Positions 22,368 through 46,300 are shown, counted from the first letter of the stretch. The stretch: 64,000 bases of DNA from Candidatus Omnitrophota bacterium (GCA_035352955.1 DAOPYQ010000004.1:13381-77380), one strand, 5' to 3'. Notes: generated by a model not told the origin, from the sequence alone. Program-made: numbers and translations.

Positions 22368-25300
22368 TTATGCCGCCGAAGAAATAACCACGTAGGCGTC
22401 AAAGAGTATTTCAAGAGCGCGGGAAGCATTAAACCCAAGGCGATCCGCAATGAATTGGCGGAGGCTCCCCGTCCTGGAGATGGCCTCATCGAGATAGGAC
22501 GACCAGGATAACTCAACCCCCGCGATAAAATCGCCCTCTTGAAGGCCCTGGAATACCGCTTTGACTTTTTGCCGCAGCCTTTGGGACAACGACTGAAGAT
22601 TGGCCGCCGCATCCCCCGTGAAATAAATGACCTGCGCGTTCCCGGGGATCTGCATGGCATTCGATTCCGTGAACACATGCCCGCCGAAACTCTCCAGCTC
22701 CCGGAGCTTTGCTTCCGTCTTCTTTGAAACCTTCCCGGTGACCACGAGATTCAGCTCTTTTCCGTAAATCCCTTTGAGCGCAAGCAATTCATTCCACCTC
22801 CGGTCGCCTTTGACCGTCCCCAGAACTTCAAGCGACCTTGCATCGATCGCGAAGAACACATTCTGCGACGGCACGCCGTCCATGAACCGGCCTTCGGCCG
22901 CGTTAGCCGGTCCACGCGCAACGCGCAACGTAGAACCTTTTTCTTTCGTTGAGCTTTGCGCGTTGAGCGTTGCGCTGTTTTCCCTCCGCATCTCGGCGCG
23001 AGGGGGCACAACCCCTCCCTCGCGGACGCCGTCCGGTTGATCGGATACCATACCGGTCTTCTCCATTTTTTGGATGTGCGTGGCAAACAATGCCGCGAGT
23101 TCCTGTCTTCCAGTCACTTGACTCACTCGTCCGGCCACGATATCCGCGGCAAATGCCATAATAAAACGTTTGAGATCGTCTTTTTCCTTAAAGAGCGGTG
23201 CATACACATCAAAAAGCGGTTGGGAAGCCGCCGGAAGAAAAACGGAAAAGCTGCCGAGGTGAGAGCCATAATCGCGGCAGTAGATCTCGAAATCAAATTC
23301 GAGGTTTTCCACGTAATGTCCCACCAGTGCCCGTTCAATCTCAAGGGCGGCAAAGAACACCTCGGGGTCATCAAGCTGCCGCACCATTTCAGGGAACCGG
23401 CTGAACAGCAAATGATCGAACATAGGGATGTCGCTGTGCCATTTCAAAAGAGCTCTTACTCTTTCCGGTCTTTTCACAGCGGGACCCTGATTGAGAAACG
23501 GCAAAATGGCGTCGATCGCACCCGAAACGGTCCGGATCATTTCTTCGATTCGCTGATTGCTACTCTCTTCCGGCATAGCCGCGGTGTTTGCCTCAAGATT
23601 CACATCTGCGGGAACGGCAACCTGGTGGAGTGAGTAAGTTATCCCAAGGTCCCCCGCGTCAAAGCCAAGGACCTCATACCGGAAAGCCCGGTCGAACGTA
23701 ATGGCATCTAACGCCCGAAACACTTCGCTCTTTAAATCGGGATATTTTTGACCCGTTTCAATCAGCGCCGGCAAAGCTTCAAATGCATCCGGTCCAAGTT
23801 TTTCCAAATCCGCCACCGCAACCTTCCTCTCAGAAGAATCCCCCTCCCGTAATCGCCGGACAAAAGGGTCGATCGTCGAATATTTATCCACCCCTTGGTC
23901 TTTTCCAGATCTTTCTAATCTCTCCTGCTTTTGGGGAAGACGCTTAAGCCCTTCGCCGTTAACAATCTTAAGCAGCTCGGAAGCCTTCGCCTGAACATCC
24001 TCGGAAGAACTATGGGCCTGACAATCCAGCAAGACAGACATCACTGTTTTCTTTTCCGTATCAATCGCAACCAAAGATTTCAATGCGTTTTCCTGAGCCC
24101 AGCTATCTGCTTTCCTTTTGACCAACCGCATCAGGGACGGAACAGCCCTTTGTGCGCCCGGTCCGATTTCACCCAGAACTTTTGCCGCCATCCTCAGTTC
24201 GACGATACGGTTAAACTGTCGACCGTAGTCCATAACGTCCATATTATCCTCTACCGTTTTGATCAAAAGGTCTACAACCTCGCCTCGTCTCGCATCGTTT
24301 CGGACGAGCCTTACAAGATTATCCCAAGCGGTGTTATCGCGATAAGCTGAATTCAACAGCAAAGAAAGCACTTTAGGCATCTCCACACCGCGAGCGCCCA
24401 ACACTTTGGCCGCGCCAAGTCTGCCTGAAAGATCCGCGTTCTTATCCTCCATCGCCCGAATCAGTGCAGACGTCAGCCGGGGATCCGCAAGATAAGCATC
24501 ATCCAAAACAGCGATAAATTCAAAATTTCCCCGTTGAATTTCCGTCTGGATCATCGGAAGCGCCATTTCTCCCATTCGCCGCAAAGCCTTCGCAAGTTTT
24601 TCACGGTTTTGAAGATCGCCCCTCCGAGCCATTGATTGATAAGCGCGGATCCAACCTTTGATCAATCGGTTCTTGTCGATGGCATCACGTTTCTCCGCAC
24701 GAAATTCATTCTGAGCGTTCGCGACAAGCACCCCCGCCGAAAGAACGACCCCCCTCACGGAATCTGGCATGCTGAACCAATCGGGGACCCGGATCCTGGC
24801 TGTAGTCCTGTCAAAGAGAAAACCCTTCCGGTCACTGCCCGGAACATCTACCGGAACGACACCCTCTCCCATCCTGGCGTACACATCCTTCACGCCCTGG
24901 TTCTTTTCCGAAGGCATGTAATACCCGACCGCTTTGCCAAGCTTTCCAACCACATAGGCCATAAAAAGGTTTTCAACCTTTCCTCCCATCCCTCCGACCC
25001 ACGCGCGACAGCTCTGGCAAAAACTTTCAATGACAGGCACCGGCCCGTTGCAATCGACCACCATCACGGCCACGATCCCCTGATCGCCTTCCCGGTCCTT
25101 CTGCTGCAGTGAAAAGACTCGGTAAGTCCCGTGCTCTCCGGACAACCGGTCCACGAGATCTTCGCGCGTAAAAGTTCTTCCGGTCATATTAAAACGGTTC
25201 GCGCGCTCGAAAAGCTCGACGACCCGATCGATCCTCGACGAAGCCGGGGTCTCTTCAAAGATCTCAACGGCCATGCCAAGTCCGCGCAGATAATCGTTAA

Positions 25301-28300
25301 AGCTTTGCCGCACGCTCTTGGCTACCTCCCAGCCTTGTTCGCGCCTCTTTTGATCTTCATAAAGACGGGTCCGGTTCCGGGCTTCCGGCGTAAGGGATCC
25401 ACTCTGAGGAGGAATAAAATCATCCAAGATCCGGGGCCACTCCGAAGGCGACGCAGGCAGTTCCGGAACTAAAACCTCGGGAAAGGCCTGCCGGACCCGG
25501 GCCCGTTCGAACGGAGAATCATCCAGGAAAACAAATGAATCGAGACCCAGGTGAAGTTTTTCGGCGATTTCCTTTAAATGTTCGGCTTTGTTCCGGTCAT
25601 CCGCCCAAATGCCGGCAAGATCCTGACGGCGCAGGGCCATTTCAGGCCTCTGGGCAAAAACCGCTTCGACGTCTTTCGGGGTATTCCGGCTTGAGATCAC
25701 CAGCAGGATTCCCCGTTCTTTCAATGCTAGAACTTTTTTCTGGACCGCCAGGAACTCTTCCGTCAGTCGTACCCCTTCCGGACCCACTTCTGACACAGCC
25801 TCACCCCAAAGCGTAAAGTCCGCATCGAGAACGACGACCTTGACGAGTTTCGGCATCGGCGCGCCAAAAGCTTTAAAAACATCTTCGGAAGCGATGGAAC
25901 GCAATTCGGCGCGGGCAGGGTCAGAATCGGGAACCTGCGGCGATGCAACCGTTTTATTCGTTTTTGCCGCTCCGCGAGCATGATCCCCAACCCCTCTCTC
26001 GCGGCTGTTCGCCTGCACTTGAGCGGCAAGCATGTCTCTCGTTTGTAATTCGGTTTTATCTTTCAAAGAATTTGCAAGCTGGTCTGTATATTCCGTCCCA
26101 ATCTCAGCAAGAACCCTGACAAGGTTCGCTTTGTACTTATCCGTACCAACATCATAAAGCGAGAGAAGATCGTCAATCCTCCTGAGAATATTCCCTTCAT
26201 AAAGCCACAAAACAACACCCTCCACCGCTGCGTCGTCATATTCGGAAGAAACAGTTTCAAGAAGCTTTCGAAGATTTTGGACTGGCTCAACGCTATAGTC
26301 TCCCGCGGAATATCGCTTTTCGGTCGGAGCCTTATCCAATTGATTCCGCTGATCATCGTGGGAGTTAAAAAAGATCGTAGGGGCGGTGTAACCAAAAGAA
26401 AGCACCGGCCTTCCGGTTGCATCAAAATATTGCACGGTCCAGCAAGCCGCCGAACTCGCTTCATCGATATCCTCGCTGCTGCGTATTTCGATCTTTTTTC
26501 CGGCAACGTCGCGGCGACTATCTTCCAATGAAAAAGGTTTCTCGATCAAACGATACTGTTCTTCGGTAATGGCCCCGCCAGTTCTAAGCTTAGTCAACAT
26601 TGCATACACTACCAGCCGGCTCGCTCCCATAATATAAATATCGCGAATGTGGTCATAAATCAGACGCACAGCTTTCCCGATACTTGGATGCTCATAACTC
26701 GCTGAAGTCAAAAATTGTGCCAAAACTACCGCCTCATTCGCACCTATGCCATACTTTCCAAGAACAAACGGATCCCTAATAATATCCTCCGCCATTTTTA
26801 ACGCAGTATTTAAGCGCTCCGCAGGATTCCTCTGATGGGAAATTTGTTCCTCCCGCATTTCGGCGCGGAGGGTCTCAGCCTCTCTCTCGCGGACGCCGTC
26901 CGGTTCGCTCTTGCGGCGGCCGAGCAATTCATGAATAAAATGTTTCTCGAGGTTTGCGGTAAAAACAGCTTTTTTGTCCGGGCTATTTTGGACCGTTTTG
27001 AACTTCTCTTCCGCTTGCTGATTCAGCTCCACGAGCCGCGGCACCGTAAATTCCGGCTTGATGCTGCCATCCGTTTGCAGATAAGCCTTGAGAAACTCCT
27101 GCTTGAATTCCGGAATATGGATCCCGTAACTGGCGTCCAGCGCGACACCGTTCTCTTCGAGGACATCCTCCCCGGTGACGAACAAAGACTGATGGTCGCC
27201 GTCCACAACGACGACGTCCCCTTCGCGCAACTTTTGACCGTTCTCCAAAACGATGGTTTGTTCATCCAACCGCGTGCCGGCCACATTAATGAGGGACGGT
27301 ATGCCGGAAAGCCGCGACAGGACCGCTTCATGCGAAGAAGCGTTCCCGTAACCTAATGTCAGCAGGCCGGAGCGGGAATATTCAAAAAGAAGCGCCAGTA
27401 GTTCATCCTGGTCTTTCTCACGCGCCACAAAAATGACCGGTTTCCCCTCCCGGATCAACTCACGTGCCCTGTCCACACTCCAGGCGAGATGGCCCTGCAT
27501 CGCACCCGGCGTCGCCGCCGGCGCAGTCGCCACGGGCTTCGCCGCTACGACGTCCCTGACCCTATAGAGTTTTCTTGACCCCAACCGCTCCTGAAGTTTT
27601 TCAAGCTGCGGGATCGCCCTGGCCTCCGTGATCTTGTTCGCCGCCAATTGTTCCCGGATGTACGCGATCTCGGCCTGCGTCGCAAAATTGATCCGGCGCG
27701 TCTGAACAAAATAAAGCTTCCCATGATTGACCACAAATTCGACCTCTTGGGGACCCACCACGTCTTCGAGTTTTTTTGCGGCGTCCACTAGTTGCGTATA
27801 GATCTCCGGGGCAACCTGCGCGAGGGCGTTGAGGTCCTCCCCCAGTTTCCCGTTCGTCATGAGTTCGCTGCCATCGGCATTCTCACTGTATCTTCCGAAA
27901 AGTCCGGCACCATTCGTGTTCGGATCCCGGGTCGAGAAAGCCCCCGCCATACACAACGCGACAGGCTCCTTGCGCGCGCGCTTTCCGTCATATTGACCGA
28001 AGGGATCAGCCTTCCCGCTTTCAAACTTCTGAACGATCAACGGAAGATCGTAGGCGTCCGGAATGCCTTCTCTTTTCCGGTACACTTTGGCTTTCGGAGA
28101 CTCCCAAGCCTTGGCCGCCGTCTGGATCTCGCTGACAGGATTGTTGAACGTTCGGATACTTTCAAGAATCCCCGGCATGGAACGTTTGGGATTGCTTCTA
28201 ACGATCAAGTCTTCATAACCCCCGGAATGGATCTTAATGCCAATACGGTTTAATTGCCTTTTAATAAAAGCGTCATAGACCGGCCTTTCTTCGTATTGAA

Positions 28301-31300
28301 TCCCCGCCAAAACAGACGCCAGCTCCGCACTGAGGGCGATCCCCGGAGGATAGGGCAATCCCAGCTTTTCAAAGATCAGGAATCCGGCTTCCTTGTTCCC
28401 CATCCCGCGTTGATAAATCCCCTTGCCCAGCTGACGGACCCCCGCATCGACCTTCGCCTCGACATCGGAATACTCTCCCAGCAGGATTCTTCTCAGGAGG
28501 ATGCTGTCAGCCGAATAGTAAAGCTCCATCAGGTCGCCGAATTCTTCCGGAACAACGAGAGAGTCCACTGCGACGCCCATCATATAGTGACGGGTTGAAT
28601 CCCAATCCTCTATATTCCGGTAATATTTTAAATAAGCATTCCGGATTCCGAACTTTTCTTTCAGAAAAACAAGGAACGGGCCTTCCATCACTTTTTTCGT
28701 CCCCTGGGGAAGCCCCTCCAGAAACCTTGCGTCATCCTCCGGAGTATCCAATCGCGTGCTATCGGATTGGGTTATGATGACCACCATGCCCGCTTCTTCC
28801 GCGGGTTCCAGTACCCGCAAATGCGATTTCCCGATTTGGTAAAGTTCGAAAAGAGCCTTCAGGTCCAGCTTCGGATTGATCTTGATCGCGGCTCGATAGA
28901 TCGCAGTAAATCTCTCATCCGGAGATTCTTGAATCCCGAGATCTTTGAGCCGTTCTTCCAGGGACTGTTCGGGGACCGGTGGGAAAACGATCCTGCGGAC
29001 CGTCTCATCGCCCGCCGCGAAATAAAATGCGGCGAAATCCGCGTATTCGGAAGTAACCTGCGTCATTTCCTGTTCCGTCACGTGACCCAGATGTCTGTTC
29101 ACCTCATAATCGATCTCGCACTCTCGCTCAATAACGCGATACGCCTGAGGAACATGAAAATCGCGACGCAGAGCCTCACAAGAAGGATCGTGCAAAAACG
29201 TGAACCTGACCTTTTTGTCTTTCCTGGTATCGAGCACCTTGCTAGCGGAATAATCCAACAGACCATAAAATTCTTCCCATTCATCGATCTTATAGACCTG
29301 TTCGCCGGAAGAACGGACCGTCGAAAGCCCGTCCTCCGCCCTCGAAGGCTGTACCATCCCCTTCTTCACCTTCGTATACGTTTCATACAACAATTTTAGA
29401 TCCAGCCCGGGGTTGACCCCTTGGGCGACCCGGAAAATGGCCATCAAAGAACCGTCCACCTCGGCTCCCGGGATCCCTTTTTCACTAAGGCTACGTTTCA
29501 AAGCCTCGGCATCCATCGGTTGCATCCCGGCAACACTCTTGCCCGTTCCTCTAAGGAGGTTCTCCATCGCCTCCTCGCCCAGAACAAGCATCATTTCGAT
29601 AAAAAGGTCGTGTTTCCCGGACGGAACCAGGAAGTCATCGCCTACCGATTTCCATCCGCCCTCAAACCTTTGCAAAGCGCGACGTTCTTTCTCGACATAC
29701 CCGCACCCGAAAATGCCATAGAATTTTTCAAGCAGCTTCAGGAAGGGATGATCCTCGACCCGTTCAACCCGGGGCTCGAAAGAATCCGCATACCGGACAT
29801 ATTCTTCATATTGGGTCGAAGGCCCGAGACGGAAGCGGCCTTTTTCATCCTTCACCGGATTTTTCTTTCGCGCCTCGAGAAATTGGTCCCGAGCCTTCTC
29901 GAACGCCACGAGATCAAGACCGGGATTAATGCCTTTCATGAATCCATAAAGCTCCTTGAAGTCACCCTGCAGATCGATCCCGAAAATCCTGGATTGAACG
30001 TCCTCGGAAGCCGACCAGGCGCCCAGGATCAGACAGAGGAACACCGGGATCGTCTTTTCAGCGGGGAAAACCAGCGTCAAACGCATTTTATCTTCCGAAT
30101 AGTGGGATTCACTGCGTTCATAATATCCCGCCTCCACCACGGCACTCTCGAGATCCGCAGGGATCTTTTTTCGGTGAAGAGCCACAAGGATTTTGGGACC
30201 CTCCAACATGTGCCAGCTATCGACATTATGGGAACGCTCGGTACTGATGGCCTCGGTGGCAAGCGCAATACGCAGATTTCCAGACTTCACTATCTTTTCG
30301 GCCACGGGTTCGAGGATCCTCTTGACCCGCATCAGACGTTCCCAATCCCCGCTAACAAAGACCCTGAGGATTCCGAACGAAATTTCCTGAACGTAGGGAT
30401 CCTCGGAAATGAGCCCGGAAACGAGATCGTTCAGCATTTTGTCGCTCACGATACTTCGGTCCTTCCCGACGATGACCTCGACAAAGAAACCGATCACTTC
30501 ATGACTCGTAAAATGCTCCGACGACGCCCATCCGGTATAGGGCGGCACAAAATGCGCCATCGTCACAAATGTTTCAACGATCGCTTCCAGACTTTCCCTT
30601 GTTTCAGGAAGTTGCTTGAACGCCCGGGCCGCCTGGACCCGCTTTTCTTGCTCCCGGTCACCCAGAAGCCTCACGATCCCGGCGATCTGTTCCATCTTTC
30701 GCTCCTGCGAAGTTTTCCCGGTCCGGAAATAACGCATAACCTCCGCTTCATACTGCGCGGGAACGATAAGATAAGTTTGAGTCTCGATCCTGTCACTATG
30801 GACCCCCTCCTGCACATAGCCCCAGCTTCCTTCCGTCACCATCGAAGCTTCCGGGATCTCCAAACGATCCTTGACCGTCGTGAGAACGGGATGCTGATCG
30901 ACCCGTTCCGGAAAACGCAGCATCTTCGCGGGCGCCTCTTCCACGGAAACGAGAAGATTACTTTGCTCGACCCAAAAACGTCCCGGCGCGACTCTTACGA
31001 TAGACTTCCCCTCGGCCGGTCCATTCGCCCGAAGTATTTTTTCAGCGACCTGCTCCACGAGATCGTCCTCGGTTCCGTTGTAAGGATGCACAAAAACATA
31101 CCGGCCAAGATCACCGCTCCACCTTGCAGCCTTAGAGAGTTCGCTAATGAAATCCCGGACGTCTTTTTCGGCGGCTTTGTCCACAACGAGGAAATAATCA
31201 TATTCGAAAGATGCAAAATGACGGGTAGGAGCCATGTCTCCCGGAAGCTCGAGATACTCCAGCGAAACGGGCACCAACGCCCGATTGATTTTTTCCGCGA

Positions 31301-34300
31301 TGACGGCGGCATAAGGCGCTAGGCCCTTTTGCTCAGCCTCGGGCAATTCCCAGCCATCGCTTAACGTGGCCGTGCCGATATGAATACGGGTCTTTCCGTC
31401 CTTCGCTTCGGCCTCGAGCAACTCCGCTCTTTTTTCAACAGAGATCCCGCGAAGATTCACGGACGCATTGACCTTTCGCGGTGAGCCCTTGATCGGTTCT
31501 TCCCGGGGCGGCCATCCCAGCGTAGGTCCGACATGGCGGAAATAGTTTTGAGAACCGGTTTGGTCTCTCTCCGAATTTAGGAAATCATCCGGGTAAGATA
31601 CCCAAAGTTCCTGCCCGTTCTTTAATTTGACCAGATACTTGTATTCATAAGTGCCTTCTTTGAGACGGCTCGTGATCATCCACTCCGTTTCCCCCTTCCT
31701 TGTACCACTCCGCATCTTAAACTCCGGGGCAGCCTTCCAGTCGTTAAACGACCCCGCCAAATAAACCGCCTCGATATCGCTTTCGTCAATTCCTCTAGGC
31801 CGAAATTGGAATGTGACATCAGCGCTATACGGTAAACGCCGCTCCGCGCGGCGGCCATCTCTCGCTGCCGGCGGGAAAGTGTTTGAATTAACCAAATTCG
31901 ACTGCCTCTCAGCCCGTTCGAGCGGAACAGGCGTAAGGACCGGGGCGCCGGGGTCCAGGGCGTACTTCTGACCAAAGAACCGGAATTGCAATTTGCCCTG
32001 GATAAAATCAAATGGGTCGAACGATTCCCCTTCCGGAACGGGTTCCGCATTCCAATCCGTCGCGCCCGTTTTTTTCTCAAGCTTATGCGGAAACTCAACC
32101 GGACCGGGCACTATTTCTTTTTCACTTTTTCTCCAAAGTGCGTTCCATCGGGACGCCGGCTTTTCAATAACGACCTCCCGCGCATAGAGCAGCGATCGTT
32201 TATGGTCCCGGTCATACCTCACCATAAAAAGGCGTATCCGGTCCGTGGAAATCCTGTAAAAATGGAGGCCGCTCACCATCCCCCGAAAAGGTTTTTCTTC
32301 AAAAACCGGTGTGACCTTCCCGTCCTTGACCGCAACGCACAAAGTCCGGGGATCCGAATCGCTCCTCCAGGTGCGCACCTTCATCTTTTTGGCGACCACA
32401 AGCACCGAGAACGGCAGGTCCGCAGCTTCCACGACTTCTCCCCAAAGAAGATCCCTGTCCTTGAACCGCTCCATATTTTTGGAGGCCTCCTCATCGGAAA
32501 CACCAAGCCTTCGGAACGCTTCGGCAATATCGGAGCGTCCTTCCAGATACATGCCCGGGATCTCTTCCCCGTTCCGGAGTTCTGCGCGGACGTTTTCGCT
32601 CTGTTCGATAAGCGGTTTCAGGATCAGGGCCAGAGTCTGCGGCGTCACGTGCCCTTTTGGAAAAGGAAGGGTATTGCCTATACCCGCCAATTCTTCTTTG
32701 TCGAGCCACACGCCCGAGATAAAAATGATCGGCGTCCTGATCCCCAATTCTTTCCGGAATCTCAGCGCAACATGATTCCCATTCCAACGCTCTCTCACCG
32801 TGCGGAAATCCTCTCCTCGCAAGCGAGCGGCATTTTCTTCATCAAGACGAAATTTCAAATCATCCAATGGCATGCTCACATCCGAAAGGATCAGGTCGAC
32901 CTCGCCGGCGTGCTCTTTCAGATAATCGAACATTTCTTTTCCGTCTTTGACGGAAACGGTCTTGATCTCCGAACGCCCCAGGGACCGGATCCCCGCTTCG
33001 TGATCAGACCGGAAATTCGCCTCATCGTCCGCGATCAGGATCGTCCGGACCGGCCTTTCAAAATGAAGTTCTGAGATCCCGGAAATAAAAGACTTCACGG
33101 CTTCCGCCTCTTCCGGAGAAAGTTCCTTCGCGACCTCGACCACTTCAGAGGTAACCCGCAAATCTTCCTTCCGGAGACCTTCACAAATACCGCGAAACCG
33201 GCTGGCCATATCGAGCTTCCAAACCTTCATCGAAATGTCCGCGAAACCTTCCTTCGCGATATTCTCCCGATACTCTCGAAGCAGACCGTCCAGCTGCGTC
33301 AGCATAAAAGCCCGCGCCTTTTGAAGATGGGCTGTCGCCGCCGCCCCATGCGAAGCACCACGGACCGCCGCCAAGGCGTCTCCGTAGATCTTGAGGATCT
33401 TTTCCCTGTGGATGCGTGCGATCACTTCCATTTTATCCTGCTCGCCCCGGACGAACGCGTCCCGCCACCTCTGCCACCAGGCGCCGCCCGATTTGACAAA
33501 ACCGCTTCGAAGCTCGGCACGGTCCGGGCGATCAAAATTCCGAAGCTTCCGGGTCAGCGCGTCGAATTGTTCCCCGAAAAGGAATCGTACATAACGGGCA
33601 TGAAAATGATGCTGGAGCGATTTGACCGCGGTATAGATCACGGACGCCCGCGAGGCAAAAAGATGCGCCAGACGGTTCTGCGCATAAAGCTCGTTGAAAA
33701 GGATCCCGCCGGTCACCCGGATCCCGTTATCGATAAGACGCTGGTTGGGTTCCCTGCCCGCCGCCCGCTGCGCACTGTAACCGTAAACAACGTTTTTAAT
33801 CCCGGCGCTCATGATCAATTTCTCGCACCATTCGCAGGGAGCCATCGTCACGAAGAGCGTCATCGAACCCATCGGATCTCCCAACCGGTCATTCACCCAG
33901 GTAAACAGCGGAAGATCGGCTTCCGGGAAATAGCGACTGATCTTCAGAGAGAACCTCAGATAATCGATCGTCGTCTTGATCTTTTCCGCGTCCTCGAACC
34001 GAACACCGGCGGTCTGCCGGGCCTGAAAAATTTTATCAAGCGCATCTACGATGGCCATACGCTCGGCGTGCTGCTGTCCCAGTCCGTTCACCGCGAGGGA
34101 GACCCCTTTCCCGTTTTGATCCACCACCATCCCTCCAACCTTGACCATTGAGGAAAACGGAAAAGCACGGAACGGGTAAGCCGCAACATAATTCATGACC
34201 TGCCGCATAGAACTCTCAAGCTTCGCGCGGTCCTGCAGGCCCTCCGAAACAACCCCCTCGCTTCGGAGCTCTGCGCGAACGACCAGCAAAGTTTTTAAAT

Positions 34301-37300
34301 AATCTTCCAGGGAGCTGAGGACCTCTTGATAGTCTTTCCTGGCAAGAACTTCCGGACGCTTGGACAGAGCTTCGCGGAACTCGCGCGTTTTGACGCCCAG
34401 TTCGCGCGCTTCTTCGTCGCTCCCGCGCCGGATCACAAAATCCGCGTTTGCCTTCGTGGGCTCGACAAAATCTTTTTCTCCTGCGGCCACATTGTCCCAG
34501 AGCGCGAGGGTGCGGAACGGATCCTTGAACTGCCGCTCCGTCACGTCCCGCCACAGTCTCCGCATGAACCGGATCTGCCACGGCGTATCGAGATAAACTT
34601 TCAAAACAGGCACGTCGGACGCAACCGCCGCGGTAAGTTTCGGGTGCAAGGTATGAAGTCCTTCGACGCCGATCACATCTTTGCTCCCAAGCACCGGCTC
34701 TCGCGCAGGCTCCGGCTTTCCGAACGTGCTGGCCGGGATCACGGCTGTTCCGTCTTCGTGGAATTTCTGCACCGTTCGCGCCACCGCCGCAAGATCGTAA
34801 GCATCAATGTGGTCAAAATCAGGCTTGCCGTTACGGAGCGGACATTCCGCCTCCGGTTTAAAATAGCGGTCTTCCGGCACCCATTCGATCTTCCGGCCCT
34901 GTGCCGCCATCAAAGCGTCAAACTCATTGAGCATCCATGATTTCCCCGTCGCGGAAGGCCCCGCCACGAGCAGCACTCCCCTCGGCGGCAATTGCCGCAG
35001 CCTCTCCGAAAACGCTCCCTTCACCTCATCCCACGTTCCAGAGCGGAGTTCGGCGCGACCACGCTCGGAAGACAAGGACGCCGCGAGTGAATTCAGAACC
35101 CGGGTCACACGTTCGATCCTTTGATCCGCCTCAGGGCCTGCTTGAAATTCCCTCAGCCCGTCCGCCCAAAGCTCCGTTTTCAGGAGAAGTCTTTCGAGTT
35201 TATCCTTTTCGACGGGGAGATCCTGCGCAATCCTTTCTTCAATGGACGTCAGCCTCGAAAGAAGTTTACTGGAATAAGCCAGAATGAAAGCCTGCCGGTC
35301 TTCGGAGTTGGGAGCGGACCGGATCTTCGAGATCAGCCGTTTGATGAACCGCTCGTTATATTCCGGCCGACGGTCCGTAAGGAACGAGGTCTTTTTAGCG
35401 TCCACGATCCGGGGAGGAAGAACCTGTCTTTCGCCGATCAACTCGGGGACAAGAGTTCCCGCGGTCACTTCCGCGACGATCTCATTTTCAACAAGTTCGT
35501 CAAGCGCATCCTGGCTGGTCATGACTTTGGCAAAAGACGCCAAGGGCATCAAGGCGGCGGAAAGCTCCGGGTGGAACGCTTCATGTTCCCGTCCAAGAAC
35601 GCTGGCCAGGATATGTTGAAAATAATTACGCCGGCTCTCGCGGGTCCAGTCGGCCGTCAGGCGATCAAAATAAGGCCTGTTATGACTGGCGATCTCCGCA
35701 AGCATGGCTACCGTGATCGCCCGGAGATCAACTCCGCCGCCCTGCAACGCGAGCTGGTAGCCCTCGCGCGCCGCCAGAAAATACTTTTCGTTCAGGTCCA
35801 GGCCTTTCCAGACAACGGTTTTTATTTCTTCCAGCAGTTCCAGGTCGAGCTTTTTGGAAGACGGCGTCACGGAGGCGCTTCCCGCCAGGTAGAGTTCTTT
35901 GATATCTCTGAAATAGATCTCGTACTTTTCCCCATTCTGTCTTTTCTTTTCCGCCGTGACCCCCAGGGCTAGGCTGATCAAAATCTGTTCGCGAGAATGT
36001 TTTTCCCAATCTTCGCCAAATTGCTCCACCTTTTTTTCCAGCGCATTAAAAATGAACCGGGTCATACCAACACCGACTAAAAATTCCGCCCCTATGCTCT
36101 CATGCCCCATCGAGACGCCAAAAAGATGAAGCCCGAGATAGGTCATGACCACGATCCCGAGCGGCACCAGGCCGGTGTAAAGAATATGCCCGATCACCGT
36201 CGGACCGAACATCCGGTAAGTCCGAAGCACGGCATATTGAAAGCGATTCATCTTTACGCCCGGCAGCTCCACTTTCCCATCCGAAAAATGTTCCGTGACC
36301 GCCGAAACCGCATCTTCCATAAAATCGCGACCTTTTTCAAGATCCTCGCCTTCCGGCGATCCCGGCAGCGGCGCAAAACCGATAGTTTTGTGCGCGAACC
36401 GGTTCCTCGGCATACGCCCTTTTTCCAGAACCGGCCGCGGTGAAAGAAAATGGCGCCGGACCACGCCGAAAAGGAATTCGGGAGAATCAAAAAAATGAGT
36501 CTCTCGCAAAGCTCTCATCAGATCCCCGGAGCCCTCAACCCGCTGGATCAATTCCTCTCCCGGATTTCTGTATTTTTTCCACCGCCCGGAGTTATAAAAA
36601 TCCGTTATCGCCGGAAGCAGGTTCCGCAGGATCCCGGCTTCGACCTTTTTTCGCGCAGCCGGTAAGACCTGCGCCATGGAACGCGAAAAATGCTGCGCCT
36701 TGAAGTTGATCCGATCCGCTTGAGCCAGCACCGCCGGATCGACTTCCGTTTTCACATACCGCTCGTAGGTCCCAATCAAACGGCTGATACCCGTCATATC
36801 CAGGTCGCGACCTTCGGCGTCCAGATAACTTCCCATCATGTCGAGCGTGGCGAGCGCGATCAGGAATTCGCAGGCCCGCTCGATCTCTTTCTGCTCCGTA
36901 ATCCCGGCCCTGCGAAGGTCCCGGACAAAAGCCACCAGTCCGTCGAGTTTCTCAAGCGAGTAACCCAGCGCATGATGTTTAATAGAAAGCAGTAATACGG
37001 AATCCCCGGAGATATCAAGGTCCCCGTACCTTACGGGGTTCTTCGAGAGAACCTCGTAAGAATCATTTTCATGCTCGTGGAAGCTGTAACTTTGTTCAAT
37101 ATCGCCGACGGCCATCTTCTTCGCCTGATATTTTGTGACCTTCCCGATATCGTGCCCAAAACAGGCGGCCTCAATCCTTGCGCGATTTTCGTTTGCCAGA
37201 CGCCGAATAAAGATTATCGCCTGCCAGGGAACGCGTGGATCCCGAAAATGAGGGCCTTCGATCTTCCGGAGAGCTTTCAACATCGCTCCGATATGGTCCT

Positions 37301-40300
37301 GAAGATAACGGCCCTCCTGATGCCACCGCTGATTAAAATTATGGGCCTTTGGAAAATTGGCATAAAGGGTCGGGAGCCCTTTGAGCTTCGATGCCATCGC
37401 CTGAACATCATCCCCCGGCTCAGAGCGGAGTTCGGCACGAACGGCCTGCGGCCCGACCTCGTCAAAAAGAGACGCCACATCGATCAACACTTCGTTGCCG
37501 TTCCGGACAAAAGGGATCCCGTAAATTTCCACCCTCTTATTTTCCGGGAGCTCGCGAAACTGGGCCTGGACGGCCGTGAGGTCCGAATCCTCAGGGATCC
37601 GGTCCATATCTGCCGCCACTTTGATCGCGATCCTTTCCATCGCGTCCTCGATCTCGAGAGGAGGATACTCCCGGCTAAGCAAATTGCCTGTAAACACCGT
37701 TTCTCCGCCGGGCACAAGCAAGGAGACATGCGCCAGAAGCCTCATCCATTTAGCGAACCGCTTGTAGGAAGCATCGTACTTCACAAGCCGTGTCGGGACG
37801 CTGACCAACCGATACCTCATATCGATCGCGTCGCGCCATTGCTTACGGAGCATTTCCTCCTCTTGGCCGAAGATCTTACGGATCATGGCGTTCAGCGACA
37901 GGATCTCGCCGGGGGTCAGGTCTTTCTCCGAATTTCCGGAGGTTTTGGCCAATTTTTCGAACCGGTACTGGTCATAAACTTCAAGAGACTGTTGACGCGT
38001 CTTTGGATCAAACCAACCCACCACCGTCGCGAGCCGGGCCGGGTAATACACCATGCTGTCCGACAGGACCGCCGAGGCGTCCACGATATTGTGTAGCACC
38101 AGCTTCAGAAAACCTTTCTCGTCCAATCCTTCCATGAATTTCTGATAACGAAGTTCCCCCAAAGATAACAACCCGACGCTCATGTGACGCCGGATCAGCC
38201 GACTGACGGCTTCTGCTCTCGCAGACGGCAACGAAAGCTCACCCCGGATAAACTGTTCGGCAAAAATGCCGCCCCGCTCCTCATGTCCTGCGTCCGTGGC
38301 CCCGGACGTGTACCCGGTGTCATGCAATTTGATCTCGAGCCACATTTCCGTTCTTTCGGCCGGCGTGAAAGTCTCAAAATAGGCTTTCAGCCTCCTGAGA
38401 TTCTGGCGATACCCCTCTTTATCTGCGTCGGAGGTCCCGCTCGCCAACCGGCGCACAAAGTACTCCGTATTTCCAGTGGCAAGCGCACGGAAGAAACGCT
38501 CCGCGCGGATCATGTGCCGCGCGCGGTCAGGATTAGGCTTGAGACCCAACGCCGGATTTCCCTCCCGGATCAACCGGAGAGCCTCGCTCGACACCAGATC
38601 GAATTTTTCAACTTCGAGATCCGGAACATAAGTCTTCACGGTCCTCATCACCGCTTCGTTAACGTTCCCCGGCGCCGCGAGTCCCGTCAAAGCTTCCTGG
38701 ATCTCATTAACTGTAATCTGAATATAGGCAACGCTTTTTTCCTTCCCCGCTTTCCGCGCAACCTCTTGCTCATCCCTGGCATCCCCAAGAGCCTTATTCA
38801 AAACCGCCACGGCTTCCTCACGAGCTCTCTCCCCAAGCCGGATCTCGGCCCGGGCTTCCTTGGCCCGGGCACGAGTGAGTGTCCCCGGCGTACCCGGTAC
38901 CGTTCCCGCGGAACCCTCCGACTTCGGAAGATCAAAGTTGCGGCGAAGATTCAACTGATTGGCCAAATCGTAGGCATTCGGGAAACTTCCCGAGAGAAGA
39001 ACGCTTGGCTGTAGCTTTTGCATTTCCTTCTCGGTTTTAGGGCGCAACAACGCAACAGTGTAAATCCTTCGTTGTCTTCCCGCTGCGACCTTTTGGGCAG
39101 CTTTGATCTCACCAAGCCCATCCCCAATAACCATCATCGTCGGATTCTGGTTTTCTTCGGAGAGACGCTCCAGCGCCGTTGCTTTGCTAAATTCCCCGCT
39201 ATAGGGCCACTCACGCGCATTGATCAAGTTCACAAAATACTTACTCAAACCAAGTTCATCTAAAATCTTCCGGGTCAAATAATGGTTGCCGCTGAGCAAA
39301 TACTGCTTGATGCCGCGCCGATGATATTCATCTAGATTTTCCAATGCCCCGGGGATAAGGTACTGCTCCATGTTCGTCTTCCATTCGGCAAGACGCTTCT
39401 GGACGTAAGCATCCTGGACTAAAAAGTATTCCGTTGCATACTTTTTCCCGATAGTTGCGGCTTCATCTAGACTGCTGCTCACCCGCTGGGCTGCAAGCGT
39501 AAACCGTTGTTCGTCGGAAATACCCAAGGACTCTTGAAAAAATCGTCTCGCTTCTGCTAAAAGTTCGCCGGTAATCATCTCCGAGGCATTCTTAACCCAG
39601 ATCTTCGCGATGATCTGAGCCTCCATAGCTTCCCAGACTTCTTCCACGCCAAAAATGGTGTTGTCAAAATCCCACACAATAACTTCCGCCTGCTCTAAAA
39701 TCTCTTCCTGTATCCGGACATCCCCATTCCGCATCTCGGCCCGGGGAGTCACAACCCCTCCCTCGCGGACGCCGTCCGGTGCGACCGTTTTGCTTTCGGC
39801 GGGAACGGTCGTAGCCCAGTGGGTGGTGAGGAGCGGAAGATGGAAGATCCGGCGGAACAGCAGTTCAAAAAAGACCTGGTAGTTGATCCGTATCTGCCGG
39901 TTCCAGAAAAAATCTTTGTACTTCCGGTAAGTCTCCCCCACGCGGATCTTCCCGCTGACAGGGTCCCTTACGGCCCTGCTTTTCCAAAATCCAAAGATCG
40001 CGCCCGGTCCATAATGCGCCGGCCGGTATTTCTGTTTCTCTTTTCCCCGAAGACTCGTGAGCCAGCGATCACCGAGTTCGTAACGGTAATTCTGAATATA
40101 GCCGGACCGGAAATTCGTCGCGGCGCTCCACCGGAACACGGCGTCCCCGGACGGATTCTCGATCACCCTCCATCCGCACATCGCCCTGGGAACGGATTCA
40201 TCCTCATAGTAGATGCGCCCGAGATAGACATCTTCATTAATAGGATAGGAAGGAAGCGGCGGAAACGCGAACAGGAACGAGAACATGCTCGGTCCCATCG

Positions 40301-43300
40301 GCGCGCGGTTCCGTTCCGGCCACCATTTCTCGTCCCACTCGCTTTGCGACGGACCCAGCTGCCCCCGCGAAGTGGTCATCACGGGCGACACGCGCTTCAT
40401 CGCGTTATTCCCCTTGGCGGAATCGATCAAAAACAGGACGTTCGAAAGAATGTTCTTGTCTGAGATCCCGATGTCGTCATCCATCAATCCAAGGATCGTC
40501 GCTTTTGCATTATCACGGGCATATTCCACGATCGCGTTCACCGCGTTGGTCTTCCCCGAAAAGATCTCCCGGTATTTTTTGACCCACTCTATCCGGCGCG
40601 GATCGTGACGCTTTTCCCAAAACCCGTTTAAAGCATCCTGGATCCTCGTCGCGACTGAGACAACCCGGGGATCAAAAACCTGCCTCCCAAAGATCTCCAC
40701 ATACTCTCTACCATGCAACCGCCCCGCAAGCGGCATATGGATCACGGTCACGGGAATCTCCGAAGTGGAGCGTTCCTTTTGGAATTGCAACACCGCGGCG
40801 AGATAAGCCCCTTGTTCCAGGCCATTCACATTGATCACCAGCTCGGCGTTCCAGTTCTTTTCTTGCTTAGCGGACTCGCGACGGAGAATTTTCAAGGAGT
40901 TCAGGACCGTCTCGAAAAAAGCGACCCGTTTTTTAGCGTACGCTTTTGTTTCTTCTTCCGTACCACCGCTATACGCCGACGGGATCCCGATGACGATCGA
41001 TTGTTGATCGCTACGGATCACCTCTCCGGCCTTCGCCTGATCGATCTTTCGATCGCGGAGAAAATCCGCCACATCGGTATAGACCTTCCCGAAATATTCC
41101 TTGTAGTCCTTTGTCGCAAAGACCGTTTTTCCGTCCTTCGCGCTATAGATCTTCAAAATAACGGGCCGCCCGTCCTCAAAAACAGCAAACCCACCCCTCG
41201 ACCGAAGCTCCGCGCGACGAAGGTCCTGACTTAGCGAACGCCCTCCGCTAAAATAGGGCGCAAAATCCTTTTGGATCCTCCGGATCGTCTGCATGACGCT
41301 CGCCTGTACCGAAGGCGACCGTTGTCCTTCGCCAAAAACACCCCCGCGATCACGAAAATAAAGAGTGTCCAGAAAATCCACAAGGAAGAACCAAGGAAGG
41401 ATATCAAGCTCCTCATCGCTGAGCCGACTTGTCCCGGCTTCCTTTTGATACGCCTTCAGAGCTCGTAGAAGTTCTTCGGCTGTCCCATGAACGTATGCCT
41501 TCGCCCCCCCACGGCCGGAACGGAAAAGGAGGCCCGTAAAATCTTCAATTCGATAACCGAACCGTGACGCTTCCCAGTCGATAATCTCCCGAATCTTTCC
41601 GGCATCATCAAAAAAAAGGTTGGCAAAATTAATATCGGAGTTGATCGGCTGACGAGAGATCTTCCGGAGAGCCTCCCGGACTTTCGGAAAAGCCTCGTCA
41701 AGGAGAGACAAAATCAACGCACTATCTTCCGGGGGATAGTTCTTTCGAATATTCTCACGAAAAATCCGGCGGCTGTTCTCCATGTCATCAAACGCATGGT
41801 CACGGACCCAGCGATTCAGCTTAGGCCATTCTGTTTCACGAACACCTGCGGTAGCAGAATGAATCCTGGCCAACCAACGAGCAACTTCTCCCATCATTTC
41901 CGGCGTTGCCTCTTCCCGTTTGATGCTCCGATACCCGGCAATCCACCGTTCGACCATGAAATACCTCACCGCATCCACCGAACCGCCCTTGATCCGAAAG
42001 ATCAGATGCTCTGCATCCTTCTCACCCGACCGGTAGATCACGGGGATCGGAACACCTCTTTGAAGGTTACGGTGAATCACCTCGGCAACGAAAAGCATCT
42101 GCGTTTCTTTACCGACCGGATCGAGGTCCGTAATCGGCTTGATGCAAAATTTCCCCTTCGAAGTCTCAAGGACTGGAAGGGTTTTCTCATTGTGAGTGAA
42201 AAAGCTAATCGCCCGAAGTTCGCCCAATTGATACTCATCAAAAAGACGCCGGATCTCATCGGGGGTCCATCCCTCAAATGCTTTGGCAATATCAGCCTGA
42301 AGCTGATCAGAACCCAGGCTTTTCAGCAGCATCTCCCCGTGGGACGGTCCCCGGATCCCCTGTCCAACATCCCGTGTTCGTGACATTGCAAACACCGGGT
42401 CTTTGTACGGTTCCTGACGGCGCAATTCGGCGCGTGATTCTTTCCGTTCCGACCGCGCGCGAAGTTCATCGAGAGCGGCGCCAACGTCTTTCCCGAGGGC
42501 TTCCATGTACCCCTGGATCTCACGGCCAAGTTTCGTACGCGCTCCGGGGTCTCCCTTGAAATCAAAAAAGCCGTCCAGCATGTCGAGGAGCCGGTTCGCT
42601 CGCTCGGAAAATCCCCGGTCCGGAAAGAAAGATTGAAGGATGTAGGCGGAACGCGTGAGATAACGCGCGATATAATCATCCTCAAAAAAGTCCATGTGAT
42701 CGCCGTCGATCGCCACACCGAAACTGCGCTCCAACATCCGCCGGTTGTACAAAAAGTCCGCGTACTTGAGAACGTCATTCGTCTCAAGCGCCGTCGGCTC
42801 GGCCGCGCTCGGCTCTCCCATCAGCGTGACAGAATCCATGATCGCGGGATGGAATTCCGAATTCCCGGCCATGATAAAAAGATCCATCTGAAAAGGCTTG
42901 TGATACGCCGGCAGCGCGTCGGGGAAAAGCTCGGGAAGAAGACGGGCCTTGAGATTCCCCTGGAACAATTTGCTCGAAGGATGCCGGAATTCAAGAATCA
43001 GATCGAAATCCGAGGGGACGCGAGCACGGCCGACCCAGCTCCCGAAGGCCTCAAGACGCACCATCCGGAAACCGCGTTCCTGCATCTCATGGACAAAGGC
43101 CTCCATATAACGCGACAGGGAAACATACCGGGTTTCGTTCCCGGGAGCCACTTGGGAGGCTTTGGCGTACAGGGAATCCTCCGTCGCCTTCTGGGCCTTT
43201 TTGAAAACATCCCCAAAATCTTCATTCACCCAGAGGTGGGGCCGGACCTCCACCGGGATCTCCGGAATATGGCGCACCACTTCCCTCACCTTGTGCCGAC

Positions 43301-46300
43301 GCTCCGGAGACCAATACCGGAAGGCGTAATTCTGCGCGAGGGATCGTTCGACAAGCTTGGGATCGATCTGGAATTTGAACGGCGTACTGGAGAACCGGAA
43401 GAAACGTGAGAACTCCCCGAGATGCGTGTCCAGATAGTCCCGGACCCCCGGGGTCACAAACGTAAAATCGTAATGGGTCCGCATTTCTAAAGACCGGAGA
43501 CCCGCATGAAAACGCGTATCGTTCAGGTGAACCTCATAGGGAAGCTTTTTCAGGCTTTCCGCTGGGATTTCGTCCCCCGCCCCGCTGCGGATAAAAAGAG
43601 TCGCCGCACCTTTTTGAAATTTCCCGGTAAAATTCCGGAGAGCTTCGTCAAATTCCTTGCGCCATTTGAGGAACGTCTTTGCGCCTGCGACCACGATCAG
43701 GGATGTTGAGGTCTTTTTTTCCGGAGCGGTCGCGCGGTTCAGCTCTGCCACCTCGACGGCAGCATCAACGCTGGTCCTACCGGGCATTTCCTCCGCCGTA
43801 AGCACGGTCTGCATGAGCGGTGAGAAGATGTCCGTCAGTCTCCGGGACATCGCCTCGCGGTGTTTAAACGGAAGCTGAGTCGGATTCCCGCTCGGACCTT
43901 TCCCATGATCGCCCATCGGAACAAGCACGGCCACGTAGGTTTTAGGATGCCCGCGGTCCTTCTCCGAAGCAAAAACCAGCGCATCCAGCAGCGCGTCGAT
44001 ATGATCCAGGTGCGGAAGCTCGAAAGTCCCCGGCAGTGCCACGATCACCTGATCGCCCGGCCTGCTCCCGGAATTTGCGGCAGGATCTTTCGCCGAAGTC
44101 CTCAGGGGAGCGGACGGCAACAACACATCTCCGGCTTCGATCCGCGACCGGAGCGTCCGCAGATTATGATTGAATTTCTTACGGATCGCCTCGAACTTTG
44201 CCATATCTTCGGACTCCGCAACGGCTCTCATCGCTTCCAACTCCTTGTTGAACCGCTCGAGGATCCCGTTCATCGCGACAAGGGATGCAGCATCGGCCTT
44301 GCGACCGGTCGGGGTCAGCCGCCCGTTCTCCCACAGAAAATTCCCGCCGTCTTCGCGCGTGATCCGGATCTTCAGGCCCCCGTCACGATCGTCTACGTCA
44401 AAGGCCCGGACCCGGTCATAAACGGCCGTGGTGTGGGTCTCGCGGTCATAGGTCGAAACCACCACCGAGTCATCCATGTTAAGAAAGACATAAACATCAT
44501 AGCGCCCCGCCAAGTTATAGTAGGTCACGGTCTTGAATGAAAACGCTTCGACTTTTTCGCCATGGCCGAACGCCCGGACCGTCCTCACCACTTCTTCCGA
44601 AAACGCGGGATTGAGCGCGTAAAAAAGGGCGTCATTAAAATAAACTTCCGGACGGTTCCTCGCATCGCCCACGTAATCCTCCCAATCCACCCAGTCGATC
44701 GACCCGACCCTCGGATCCGTCACTCGCAGATTTTTCTCCGCTTCCGGCGTGAGAAAGATCGCACCGAGGGAAGCGAACTGCCGGGAATGGATCGAGGGAT
44801 CCTCCTTGTAACGGCTATGCGTCCGGAGCCAGCCGGCGGTCCGGATCTGCATGAACTGGAACCCGCCATCTTCAAGTCCGTATTGTTCCTTTAACGCACG
44901 GCGAAGGACTTTTTCAAAACTCCCGCGGTCTTTCGGCTGATAAAGAGCCTGGACACTCAGATCGAACCGCCCCTTGCCGAGGTGAACCGACTGAGACCGT
45001 TGTCTGCGCAGGACTTGCAGCCGACCCTCCGGGCTCTTTCTGAAAATGAATCCTTGCAGGGATTCATGCCAAAGCCCCTCACGATGAACAATAGCCCTTT
45101 CCTCCACGGCAACCGAAGTTCGCGTGGCCGGATCCACCACCGGCAGTTGTTCCCTCTGGTATCCCCTCTCGCCTTCGACGGGAACGACCCTGGCCTTTTC
45201 GAGCTCGGCGATCGCAAGGCTGACGCTCTGCTCCAACGCCCCGATCTGACTCCGCACCGATTCAAACAACCGCTTCCCGGTAGGAATGCTTTTTTCCCGG
45301 CCGGTCATATCATAGTAACGGTTAAGGTCGTTCAATAACCGGTTCGCACGGGCTGCAAAATCCTTATCGGGAAAAGTCGTGTGCAACAAAAAAGCGCCAC
45401 GCGTTAGATAACGCACCAGGAATTCATCGTCAAAGAATCCGCCGACCCCGCCCTGCCCGATCTCGTCGGAATACTTTTCCCGCCTTGTGCGGGTTTCAAA
45501 AAGATGCTTGGCGTGCACGAGGACCCGCTCAACATCCGCTTTCTTGGGATCGAGATGGCTGACCGGTCCGAACAGCGTGACGGAATCTTCGATCGCCGGA
45601 TCGTACTTTTCCGAAGGGGTGGAAACCAGTAGCTCCATGCGATTGACGCGAAGATTTTTGGCAACACCCTCAGGGTAAGCCTCCGGAACCAGATCCGCGT
45701 GAAGCGTGCTCGAAAAGAATTTGACGTTCGGATGTTCGAACTCAAGCCTGAAATCGATATCACCGGGATCCCGGGGGCCGGACGTCCAACTCCCGGTCGC
45801 TTCGATACGAACGAGCCGGAAACCGCGGGCGACCATTTGATCCACATACGCCTCAAGATAGTCCGACAAAGGAACGGTTTTCCCGGGTCCAGAAGCGGCA
45901 GCGAGAGCCCCTTCAGCGACCTTCTGGACTTTGAGCCCATAATCCCCGAACTGTCCGCCGTCATAGAGATAATCACGGACCCGGACCGGGATCTGCGGGA
46001 TCTGCCGGATGAGCCTGCGCATCTTTTCCTTCTGCGACGGCGGGAGATAACGGAAAGCATACTTGTTCTCGAGAACTTCGTTGATCTGCGCGTCCGTGAT
46101 CCGGAGTTTAAACGCTTCCGCCCCCTTCGCGTTCTCTACTTTTTCTTCGCTGCGAAGCTCCGCGCGGATTGCGCCTTTCAGGATAAATTGAGCGATCGTC
46201 TTCCCGCTTTTCGAGGCTTCCTGTTTGATCCAATGGTCCGCCGCGAGCTCATCCCCGCGAAACCGACCGACGATCTTTGGGTAGGCGGGGCTGCGGACCG

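Follow-up and report, generated by a model that had tools for sequence, protein, structure and literature searches.

Multi-enzyme giant proteins of Omnitrophota have been described as the "Archaeovorin" type (West-Roberts et al. 2023, bioRxiv 10.1101/2023.11.21.568195), in a paper that leaves the cleavage of such proteins as an open question, and the giant proteins of this group also include a "multi-enzyme metabolic cluster" class (bioRxiv 10.64898/2026.06.07.730766). In the accessible parts of both papers, a recurrent linker motif, intragenic linker repeats and recombination go unmentioned. Here, we analyzed a stretch of 64,000 nucleotides (nt) from a Candidatus Omnitrophota bacterium (GCA_035352955.1 DAOPYQ010000004.1:13381-77380), referred to below as the window, which carries a giant open reading frame (ORF) encoding a multi-enzyme protein with three near-identical internal repeats. 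We propose that these repeats are probably paralogous copies of one linker cassette, copied as a short patch and kept by selection on a probable processing site. The protein resembles the Archaeovorin-type giants in its Omnitrophota host, its signal-peptide-like start, its unannotated N-terminal region and its mosaic of enzyme domains, and the PPDK_N, HAD, HEAT and response-regulator receiver domains that are frequent in published Omnitrophota giants are present in it. However, at 10,500 amino acids (aa) it lies below the 30,000-aa cut of the Archaeovorin definition and, unlike Archaeovorins, it has no C39, S8 peptidase or SecA_DEAD domain (Pfam E<=1e-3; N-terminal modules E<=1).

Other known systems share parts of this architecture. 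Viral polyproteins carry recurrent protease cleavage motifs, such as the dibasic sites of flaviviruses and the NIa sites of potyviruses; similarly, the giant ORF is made of protein-sized units split by a short motif that ends in a basic residue and is followed by a small one. In contrast to viral polyproteins, it is a cellular bacterial gene with metabolic and regulatory modules, no cis-encoded protease was identified, and its cleavage is a prediction from sequence. In modular megasynthases (polyketide synthases and nonribosomal peptide synthetases), modules and linkers are subject to concerted evolution and gene conversion, and precursor families such as the prochlorosins and conotoxins combine conserved leaders with hypervariable cores. 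As in these systems, the boundary segments are near-identical in DNA, the adjoining parts are unrelated or divergent, and identity stops at a processing site, here a presumed one. However, the homogenised unit is 53 nt long and lies upstream of the presumed cut within one ORF, and the adjoining modules are nonhomologous enzymes rather than paralogous modules or peptides. Palindromic repeats also occur in frame, as with the Rickettsia palindromic elements, and repetitive extragenic palindromic (REP) sequences and bacterial interspersed mosaic elements form hairpins in polycistronic mRNAs. The repeats studied here are likewise short, sharply bounded, palindrome-bearing and in frame in coding sequence, and the equivalent cassettes of relatives form hairpins. 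Unlike palindromic elements, the three copies sit at the motif sites of one gene, with no intergenic copy in ~72 kb, and show no significant fold, terminal inverted repeats or target-site duplications.

Three copies of a linker cassette in the giant gene

The three repeats, designated copies A, B and C (Table 1), are direct in-frame repeats spaced 3867 and 12876 nt apart, and all of them lie in the same reading frame of the giant ORF. Each ends in the pentapeptide RAEMR, a variant of the motif RAE[L/M/I]R that separates modules at 15 sites in the giant protein. An unbiased repeat search of the giant gene ranked the 53-nt A/B/C family first. The copies share an exact 19-mer, CTCGCGGACGCCGTCCGGT, which contains the 6-1-6 palindrome CGGACGnCGTCCG in every copy, and no further match to the 19-mer with up to 3 mismatches was found in the window (0.04 expected; 0 of 100 shuffles reached 3). 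Copies A and C differ at 4 positions and have an exact 31-mer in common, while copy B differs at 9 positions. When the 51 nt anchored on the motif were compared, pairs within the trio were identical at 43 to 47 positions, versus 12 to 28 for the other pairs among the 15 sites. At the protein level, all copies follow the consensus PDGVRE-x6-RAEMR, in which PDGVRE and RAEMR are invariant and the middle six residues vary.

These results bore out the original prediction that the three sites are conserved at the nucleotide level, a point to which the shared 19-mer, the repeat search and the codon test described below all contribute, and the predicted 19-nt core was recovered exactly at each site. 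The expected identity of about 90% between copies A and C came to 92% over the 53-nt block; the unit itself, put at about 60 nt, was thus longer in the prediction than the conserved block that we measured. The peptide PDGVREGG-VV-PRAEMR, which had been ascribed to every site, is encoded by copies A and C (PDGVREGGVV[P/T]PRAEMR) but not by copy B, in which the middle six codons differ. We also checked, as had been proposed, whether flanking module sequence is duplicated together with the repeat. In 250-nt alignments around the copies, similarity extended from 1 base before the Pro codon of PDGVRE to the last Arg codon of RAEMR; the edges were sharp and the adjoining module sequence was unrelated between copies on both sides, indicating that the linker alone was copied. 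Module duplication as the source of the trio was ruled out on these grounds. The sole paralogous modules of the giant gene, a PPDK-like pair with 71% identity over 89 nt, are of greater age and do not account for it. These two modules, at aa ~1490-2000 and ~8490-9000, are old paralogues that retain 71 to 82% identity over short stretches; the second runs up to linker copy B, and at the end of the first stands ...PAGIRAAELADLL, which may be a motif that has decayed.

We then asked whether codon identity among the copies exceeds what peptide conservation would give, using as the null a codon usage drawn from the giant gene itself. Of the 15 degenerate residues that copies A and C have in common, 13 are encoded by identical codons (P=2e-5); for the three copies together, the figure is 8 of 10 shared degenerate positions (P=3e-6). 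At 12 short RAELR sites, synonymous codons are mixed (0.356 identical versus 0.321 expected). Because the codon identity of the trio exceeds peptide conservation plus codon usage, its members share DNA ancestry, and their relationship is one of DNA and not of peptides alone. The original prediction had offered recent intragenic duplication or gene conversion as an explanation, and this fits, since the linker alone was copied and the codons match.

The same prediction had also raised the possibility of an assembly collapse. More than 10 assemblies from four pipelines and several samples (JGI, ENA, two NCBI metagenome-assembled genomes [MAGs] and Logan) were 100% identical to the window, which excludes such an artefact as far as assemblies can show. 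One Logan contig ends at position 23036, i.e., k-1 bases into the 31-mer common to copies A and C, which is the expected product of a true repeat in a k=31 graph. Elsewhere in the giant gene, both contigs of MAG GCA_035403665.1 that carry it stop at ~33670-33690, leaving fragments of 6726 and 3757 aa, and no repeated 20-mer was found at this break.

Motif sites and the protein family

The 15 RAE[L/M/I]R sites lie between Pfam domains of different families and delimit segments of ~205 to 1,900 aa with unrelated Pfam domains. No site was found in the other genes of the window, and the one further RAELR match, which is off frame inside the giant ORF, does not represent a gene. The PDGVRE extension is present at 3 of the 15 sites and absent from the other 12, and Met at motif position 4 is exclusive to the three repeat copies. 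Some short sites also resemble each other. The RAEIR site at aa 5007 is identical to copy C at 20 of 27 nt over the core and downstream sequence, and adjacent sites at aa 5478 and aa 6272 are identical at 22 of 27 nt; neighbouring linkers around one module can thus resemble each other. Against the 3' part of copy C, 891 nt away across an HAD module, the RAEIR site matches at 22 of 25 nt. This site also contains GCCCGGGC-N7-GCCCGGGC, an 8-bp perfect hairpin (z=-2.5). As a separate observation, the Arg codons of the motif are CGN in 30 of 30 cases and never AGR, although AGR makes up 21% of the Arg codons of the gene (P ~8e-4), which suggests that the sites have a common descent or that there is a preference at the nucleotide level.

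The giant protein begins with a conserved N-terminal domain of ~550 aa. A phmmer search with this domain against 1.84e9 representatives returned 3333 matches at E<=1e-3, including 283 at E<=1e-30. The homologues are mostly multi-thousand-aa proteins aligned over query residues ~14-600, and the named relatives all belong to Candidatus Omnitrophota/Omnitrophica; the domain also occurs as stand-alone proteins of ~430 aa. Motifs conserved in it are QDAHDSLEAQ, FEEGYEGPVP, RIGGAEYAH and GGFHK. Neither Pfam nor the PDB contained a sequence matching this domain. Its AlphaFold2 model (pLDDT, a per-residue confidence score, 80; pTM, a fold-level score, 0.82) gave no significant Foldseek match; low-probability matches (ChaN 2g5g, HopBA1 5t09 and 2rad) point to a weak ChaN/EreA-like resemblance.

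We scanned 149 homologues of the N-terminal domain together with the giant ORF (150 proteins; 414,391 aa) for the pentapeptide in the form R[SAP]E[VLMIA]R. The scan yielded 801 sites, i.e., 1.93 per 1000 aa versus 0.027 expected (~73-fold). Among proteins of at least 2000 aa, 79 of 91 had at least 3 sites, and the median spacing across the family was 306 aa. In the family logo, conservation was confined to the pentapeptide, with small residues favoured directly before and after it, and lineages preferred different variants (RSEVR, RSELR, RSEMR, RSEAR, RAEVR or RPEAR). The giant ORF displays both homology in the N-terminal domain and enrichment of the pentapeptide at protein-length spacing. In the searchable literature, motif strings of the form R-[S/A]-E-hydrophobic-R turned up only in PL7 alginate lyases, which are unrelated. 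Judging by sequence features, the family of R-[S/A]-E-hydrophobic-R-punctuated giant proteins headed by this N-terminal domain is newly delimited here. Most plausibly, the motif would be a proteolytic processing site and the giant protein a polyprotein. On such processing, standard tryptic data carry no information, because trypsin also cuts after the last Arg of the motif.

Linker cassettes in related genes

Nine other proteins of the family have non-adjacent or tandem sites with 7 to 14 of 14 upstream residues in common, and each of these proteins has its own extension, e.g., SGHPQSAFRIPKSE-RSEVR, TDPGTPQSLKRLAS-RAEVR or NPGGLLHFPDN-RSE[M/L]R. In the DNA of five relatives, the site pairs were near-identical at the nucleotide level too, and the sequence downstream was unrelated. 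Self-BLAST of these five genes showed that the top intragenic repeats are the linker cassettes, which are 57 to 134 nt long and 85 to 98% identical. Several of them start at another, sometimes degenerate, motif, and some consist of tandem 60-nt units. The distance between their 3' ends and the final motif base is 0 to 1 nt; however, the motif codons are alike at all sites (10 to 14 of 15 nt), so that the true copy boundary may be anywhere inside the motif. The recurrence of such cassettes in five other genes would fit the notion that linkers are places where recombination products survive.

Folding and other roles of the repeat

An alternative reading, which we regard as unlikely, is that the cassette is a nucleic-acid-level element that forms a hairpin and acts in cis on DNA or mRNA, the encoded peptide being secondary; such an element might drive module shuffling as a site of recombination or template switching, be a mobile palindromic insert that only linkers tolerate, or serve in the mRNA as a hairpin for pausing or stability. 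Consistent with this, the 19-nt core has six unchanged synonymous positions and the palindrome in all copies. Palindromes of the 6-1-6 type are, however, unremarkable (29 in the window), and a stem of at least 6 bp is found in ~20% of random 90-nt windows. RNAalifold drew a common 16-pair hairpin for the trio, with 46 of 48 cells paired, 2 unpaired and one compensatory G:C to A:U pair, but its covariation was equalled by 164 of 500 shuffles, three sequences giving no power in this comparison, and an Rfam search of the trio gave no match. Folding energies were calculated with ViennaRNA and compared with dinucleotide shuffles. For 80 nt, z was -0.45, -0.39 and +0.29 on the sense strand and -0.50, -0.48 and +0.20 on the antisense strand; against shuffles, the 54-nt unit gave -0.95, +0.29 and +0.91, and 75 nt gave -1.95, +0.70 and +1.51. 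The structured mRNA element that had been proposed on the basis of foldable GC-rich segments was therefore not supported, the energies of the trio being indistinguishable from those of shuffles and Rfam being negative.

The duplicated cassettes of relatives speak more in favour of a nucleic-acid element. Those of P0078 fold far better than shuffles (z of -5.3 and -5.5, two perfect hairpins of 9 and 11 bp), as do those of P0058 (z of -3.5 and -2.9), and compensatory changes between cassette copies are present in P0058 and P0037. Across six genes, duplicated-cassette sites had a mean z of -1.34 versus +0.30 for single sites (Mann-Whitney P=5e-4, the copies not being independent). Linkers that are not duplicated tend, if at all, towards less structure than windows drawn at random from the genes (mean z of +0.30 versus -0.01), and one hairpin arm in P0058 is the reverse complement of the motif codons.

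The distribution of the cassette argues against an element of this kind. The window plus 7.9 kb beyond it (~72 kb) contains three copies only; they belong to a single gene, share their frame and orientation, and sit precisely on motif sites. A degenerate DNA pattern for PDGVRE-N18-RAExR, which was checked to match the window three times, gave two matches in 185,579 GTDB representative genomes, both judged to be due to chance, and none in metagenome contigs or in viral contigs. No transposase, integrase or reverse transcriptase was detected among the large ORFs of the window. A dispersed mobile palindromic element, similar to Rickettsia palindromic elements, REP sequences or miniature inverted-repeat transposable elements, is unlikely given three copies in ~72 kb and none in the other collections. 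A diversity-generating retroelement was rejected, since no reverse transcriptase is present in these ORFs and the changes are not adenine-specific: 4 of 7 differences between copies A and B coincide with an adenine in one copy, and adenines elsewhere have not changed. Scans for promoter and terminator consensus sequences around copies A and B revealed nothing above shuffles and nothing at the repeats. GGAGG precedes an in-frame GTG or ATG in copies A and C, which raised the possibility of an internal translation start. This idea was set aside: copy B has no GTG, the ATG lies ~22 nt from GGAGG, and start codons are missing from the 12 short sites.

Genomic context

Gene callers give the giant ORF a length of 10,483 aa. 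Pfam domains in the protein are Response_reg, PPDK_N with PEP-utilizers (twice), ARMT1-like, DUF6932 (nucleotidyltransferase-like), APH and HAD, together with HD, PRK, dCMP deaminase, AMPK1_CBM and HEAT_2; its C-terminal 1521 aa match FkbH-type (FkbH/HAD-IIIC-like) proteins only. Module 2 is not conserved among family homologues, whose alignments end at residue ~600-660, and its Peptidase_M50 match is sub-threshold (E=0.054). The adjoining genes are annotated in the source databases as Candidatus Omnitrophota bacterium. They include an FtsH-like protease gene upstream and hrcA-grpE-dnaJ downstream, so that the putative polyprotein gene has protease and chaperone genes as neighbours. A second giant ORF in the same locus is without any R[S/A]ExR punctuation and represents a different class of giant protein.

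Table 1. Positions of the features discussed, counted from the first nucleotide of the window; positions with an L prefix belong to relatives
Feature	Position	Strand	Remarks
Giant ORF, multi-enzyme protein	22368..53870	minus	31,503 nt, 10,500 codons from TTG
Repeat copy A (reference)	22985..23037	minus	encodes PDGVREGGVVPPRAEMR, aa 10279-10295
Repeat copy B	26852..26904	minus	83% to A; encodes PDGVREREAETLRAEMR, aa 8990-9006
Repeat copy C	39728..39780	minus	92% to A; encodes PDGVREGGVVTPRAEMR, aa 4698-4714
19-nt core, copy A	23019..23037	minus	codons PDGVRE; palindrome at 23023-23035
19-nt core, copy B	26886..26904	minus	palindrome at 26890-26902
19-nt core, copy C	39762..39780	minus	palindrome at 39766-39778
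RAEMR, copy A	22986..23000	minus	
RAEMR, copy B	26853..26867	minus	
RAEMR, copy C	39729..39743	minus	
Short RAELR, aa 592	52083..52097	minus	end of conserved N-terminal domain
Short RAELR, aa 1034	50757..50771	minus	
Short RAELR, aa 2569	46152..46166	minus	
Short RAELR, aa 3813	42420..42434	minus	
Short RAELR, aa 4219	41202..41216	minus	
RAEIR, aa 5007	38838..38852	minus	GCCCGGGC...GCCCGGGC hairpin
Short RAELR, aa 5478	37425..37439	minus	
Short RAELR, aa 6272	35043..35057	minus	
Short RAELR, aa 6532	34263..34277	minus	
Short RAELR, aa 6784	33507..33521	minus	
Short RAELR, aa 7095	32574..32588	minus	
Short RAELR, aa 9320	25899..25913	minus	between copies B and A
Conserved N-terminal domain	52095..53765	minus	aa 36-592, after signal-peptide-like start; phmmer; AlphaFold2
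Module 2 of giant protein	50772-52082		aa 597-1033; multi-pass membrane segment, HEIFH motif
PPDK-like paralogue matches	47985-48104 vs 27079-27167; 49156-49194 vs 28171-28209		
459-aa protein without assigned function	54212-55591		upstream of giant gene
FtsH-like AAA+/M41 protease	55602-57269		two transmembrane helices; two genes upstream of giant gene
hrcA-grpE-dnaJ	21383-22189, 20754-21395, 19568-20668	same strand	downstream of giant gene
Second giant ORF	2123-15703	same strand	4,526 codons; beta-helix and RHS-repeat matches
Relatives' strongly folding duplicated cassettes	L017:6487-6568, 8809-8890; L020:4790-4923, 10922-11055		
Duplicated cassettes, strong fold	L018:2583-2651, 5280-5348, 5217-5294, 6405-6482		

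Discussion

The reading that we favour is that the trio arose by short-patch copying of one cassette, consisting of a 12-codon extension (PDGVRE plus six variable codons) followed by the five codons of RAEMR. The cassette would have been copied as a short patch between distant linkers of the giant gene, leaving the neighbouring modules behind, and the similar motif codons would have anchored the ectopic gene conversion, template switching or recombination that probably brought this about. Selection would then purge events that harm a flanking module or the motif and so give rise to sharply bounded cassettes, since only events confined to the linker leave both flanking modules intact and survive. 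After copying, PDGVRE and RAEMR would have been preserved, and the six codons between them would have drifted or been diversified in copy B. At least two copying events would be needed, with A and C as the younger pair (4 differences) and B either older or modified (9 differences). The mechanism of copying is deduced rather than observed, as is any role of the PDGVRE extension, which might serve as a shared C-terminal tail or as a recognition sequence on three products.

Several observations weigh against this proposal. With its 15 nt of imperfect homology, the motif core is a short substrate for conversion of the RecA type. No synonymous change was found in the 19-nt core of any copy, compared with three in the rest of the cassette, which weakly suggests an extra nucleotide-level constraint on the core (roughly P=0.05 by estimate). 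Conversely, of the changes that separate the middle six codons of copy B from those of copy A, 7 are nonsynonymous and 0 synonymous, a bias not expected from simple drift; set beside the constancy of the core, this hints that the core is constrained or that the middle codons have been diversified. Recombinant, deleted or polymorphic variants were not observed among the available assemblies, all of which are identical, and no close orthologue of the giant gene was found in the searched collections, because of which the copying events are neither dated nor polarised. In metagenome contigs, the module at aa 9007-9319 had no relative. The strongly folding cassettes of relatives, with their compensatory changes, may leave room for a nucleic-acid-level role in the family. 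With respect to cleavage, neither Pfam nor a PDB sequence search revealed a protease domain in the N-terminal domain, which may nonetheless be the processing enzyme, as one possibility.

Besides the nucleic-acid element discussed above, the extension PDGVRE-x6 could be a functional peptide borne by the three upstream modules, be it a common C-terminal tail, an exosite for a protease or a tag for sorting, with the similarity due mainly to selection on the peptide and copying incidental. The invariance of PDGVRE and RAEMR around a variable middle would agree with this, and the block ends at the last residue of the motif, which would be the C-terminus of a product if cleavage follows the final Arg; moreover, other family members repeat their own lineage-specific extensions at two sites. 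Selection on the peptide alone, however, leaves the identical synonymous codons unexplained, conservation across the family does not reach beyond the pentapeptide, 12 of the 15 sites manage without the extension, and the extension matches nothing in Pfam-annotated regions or beyond. We consider a peptide function as the cause of the similarity to be decidedly unlikely.

The original prediction had also named a recombination hotspot for module shuffling, which is a deduction that no recombinant or deleted variant among the assemblies illustrates. In its strongest form, this idea would make the cassettes cis-acting nucleic-acid elements by which modules are cut and pasted, or copied and pasted, in frame within Omnitrophota giant genes, a proposal that we put forward as very doubtful. 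If it were true, hairpin-capable sequence and motif codons would together make up a cassette system that works within a gene and preserves its frame, in loose analogy to integron attC sites or REP elements. The three direct repeats would then be live recombination sites, exchange between which deletes or duplicates 1289 or 4292 codons in frame, and such a system would explain how dozens of unrelated enzymes were assembled behind one N-terminal head.

Finally, protein-level convergence with codon bias, or a collapsed or chimeric repeat in the assembly, is extremely improbable: the gene has a high GC content and some codon bias, the metagenome assemblies are built from short reads and one Logan contig breaks at copy A, but the codon-usage null was rejected (P=3e-6), the copies differ at 4 to 9 positions in different unique contexts within an intact 31.5-kb frame, more than 10 assemblies agree, and the break is explained by the k=31 graph.

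Returning to short-patch copying of a linker cassette, the trio alone is a modest finding, namely, a recently copied linker with no detectable fold. Together with the equivalent cassettes in five genes, it provides direct sequence evidence of DNA-level copying of linkers within one gene. The pentapeptide at module boundaries predicts exact, testable cut sites and bears on whether such a giant protein acts as a single chain or as many products. As the cassettes are in-frame direct repeats, an exchange between two of them would remove or double entire groups of modules with the frame unbroken, and linker copying is a process that could shuffle modules.

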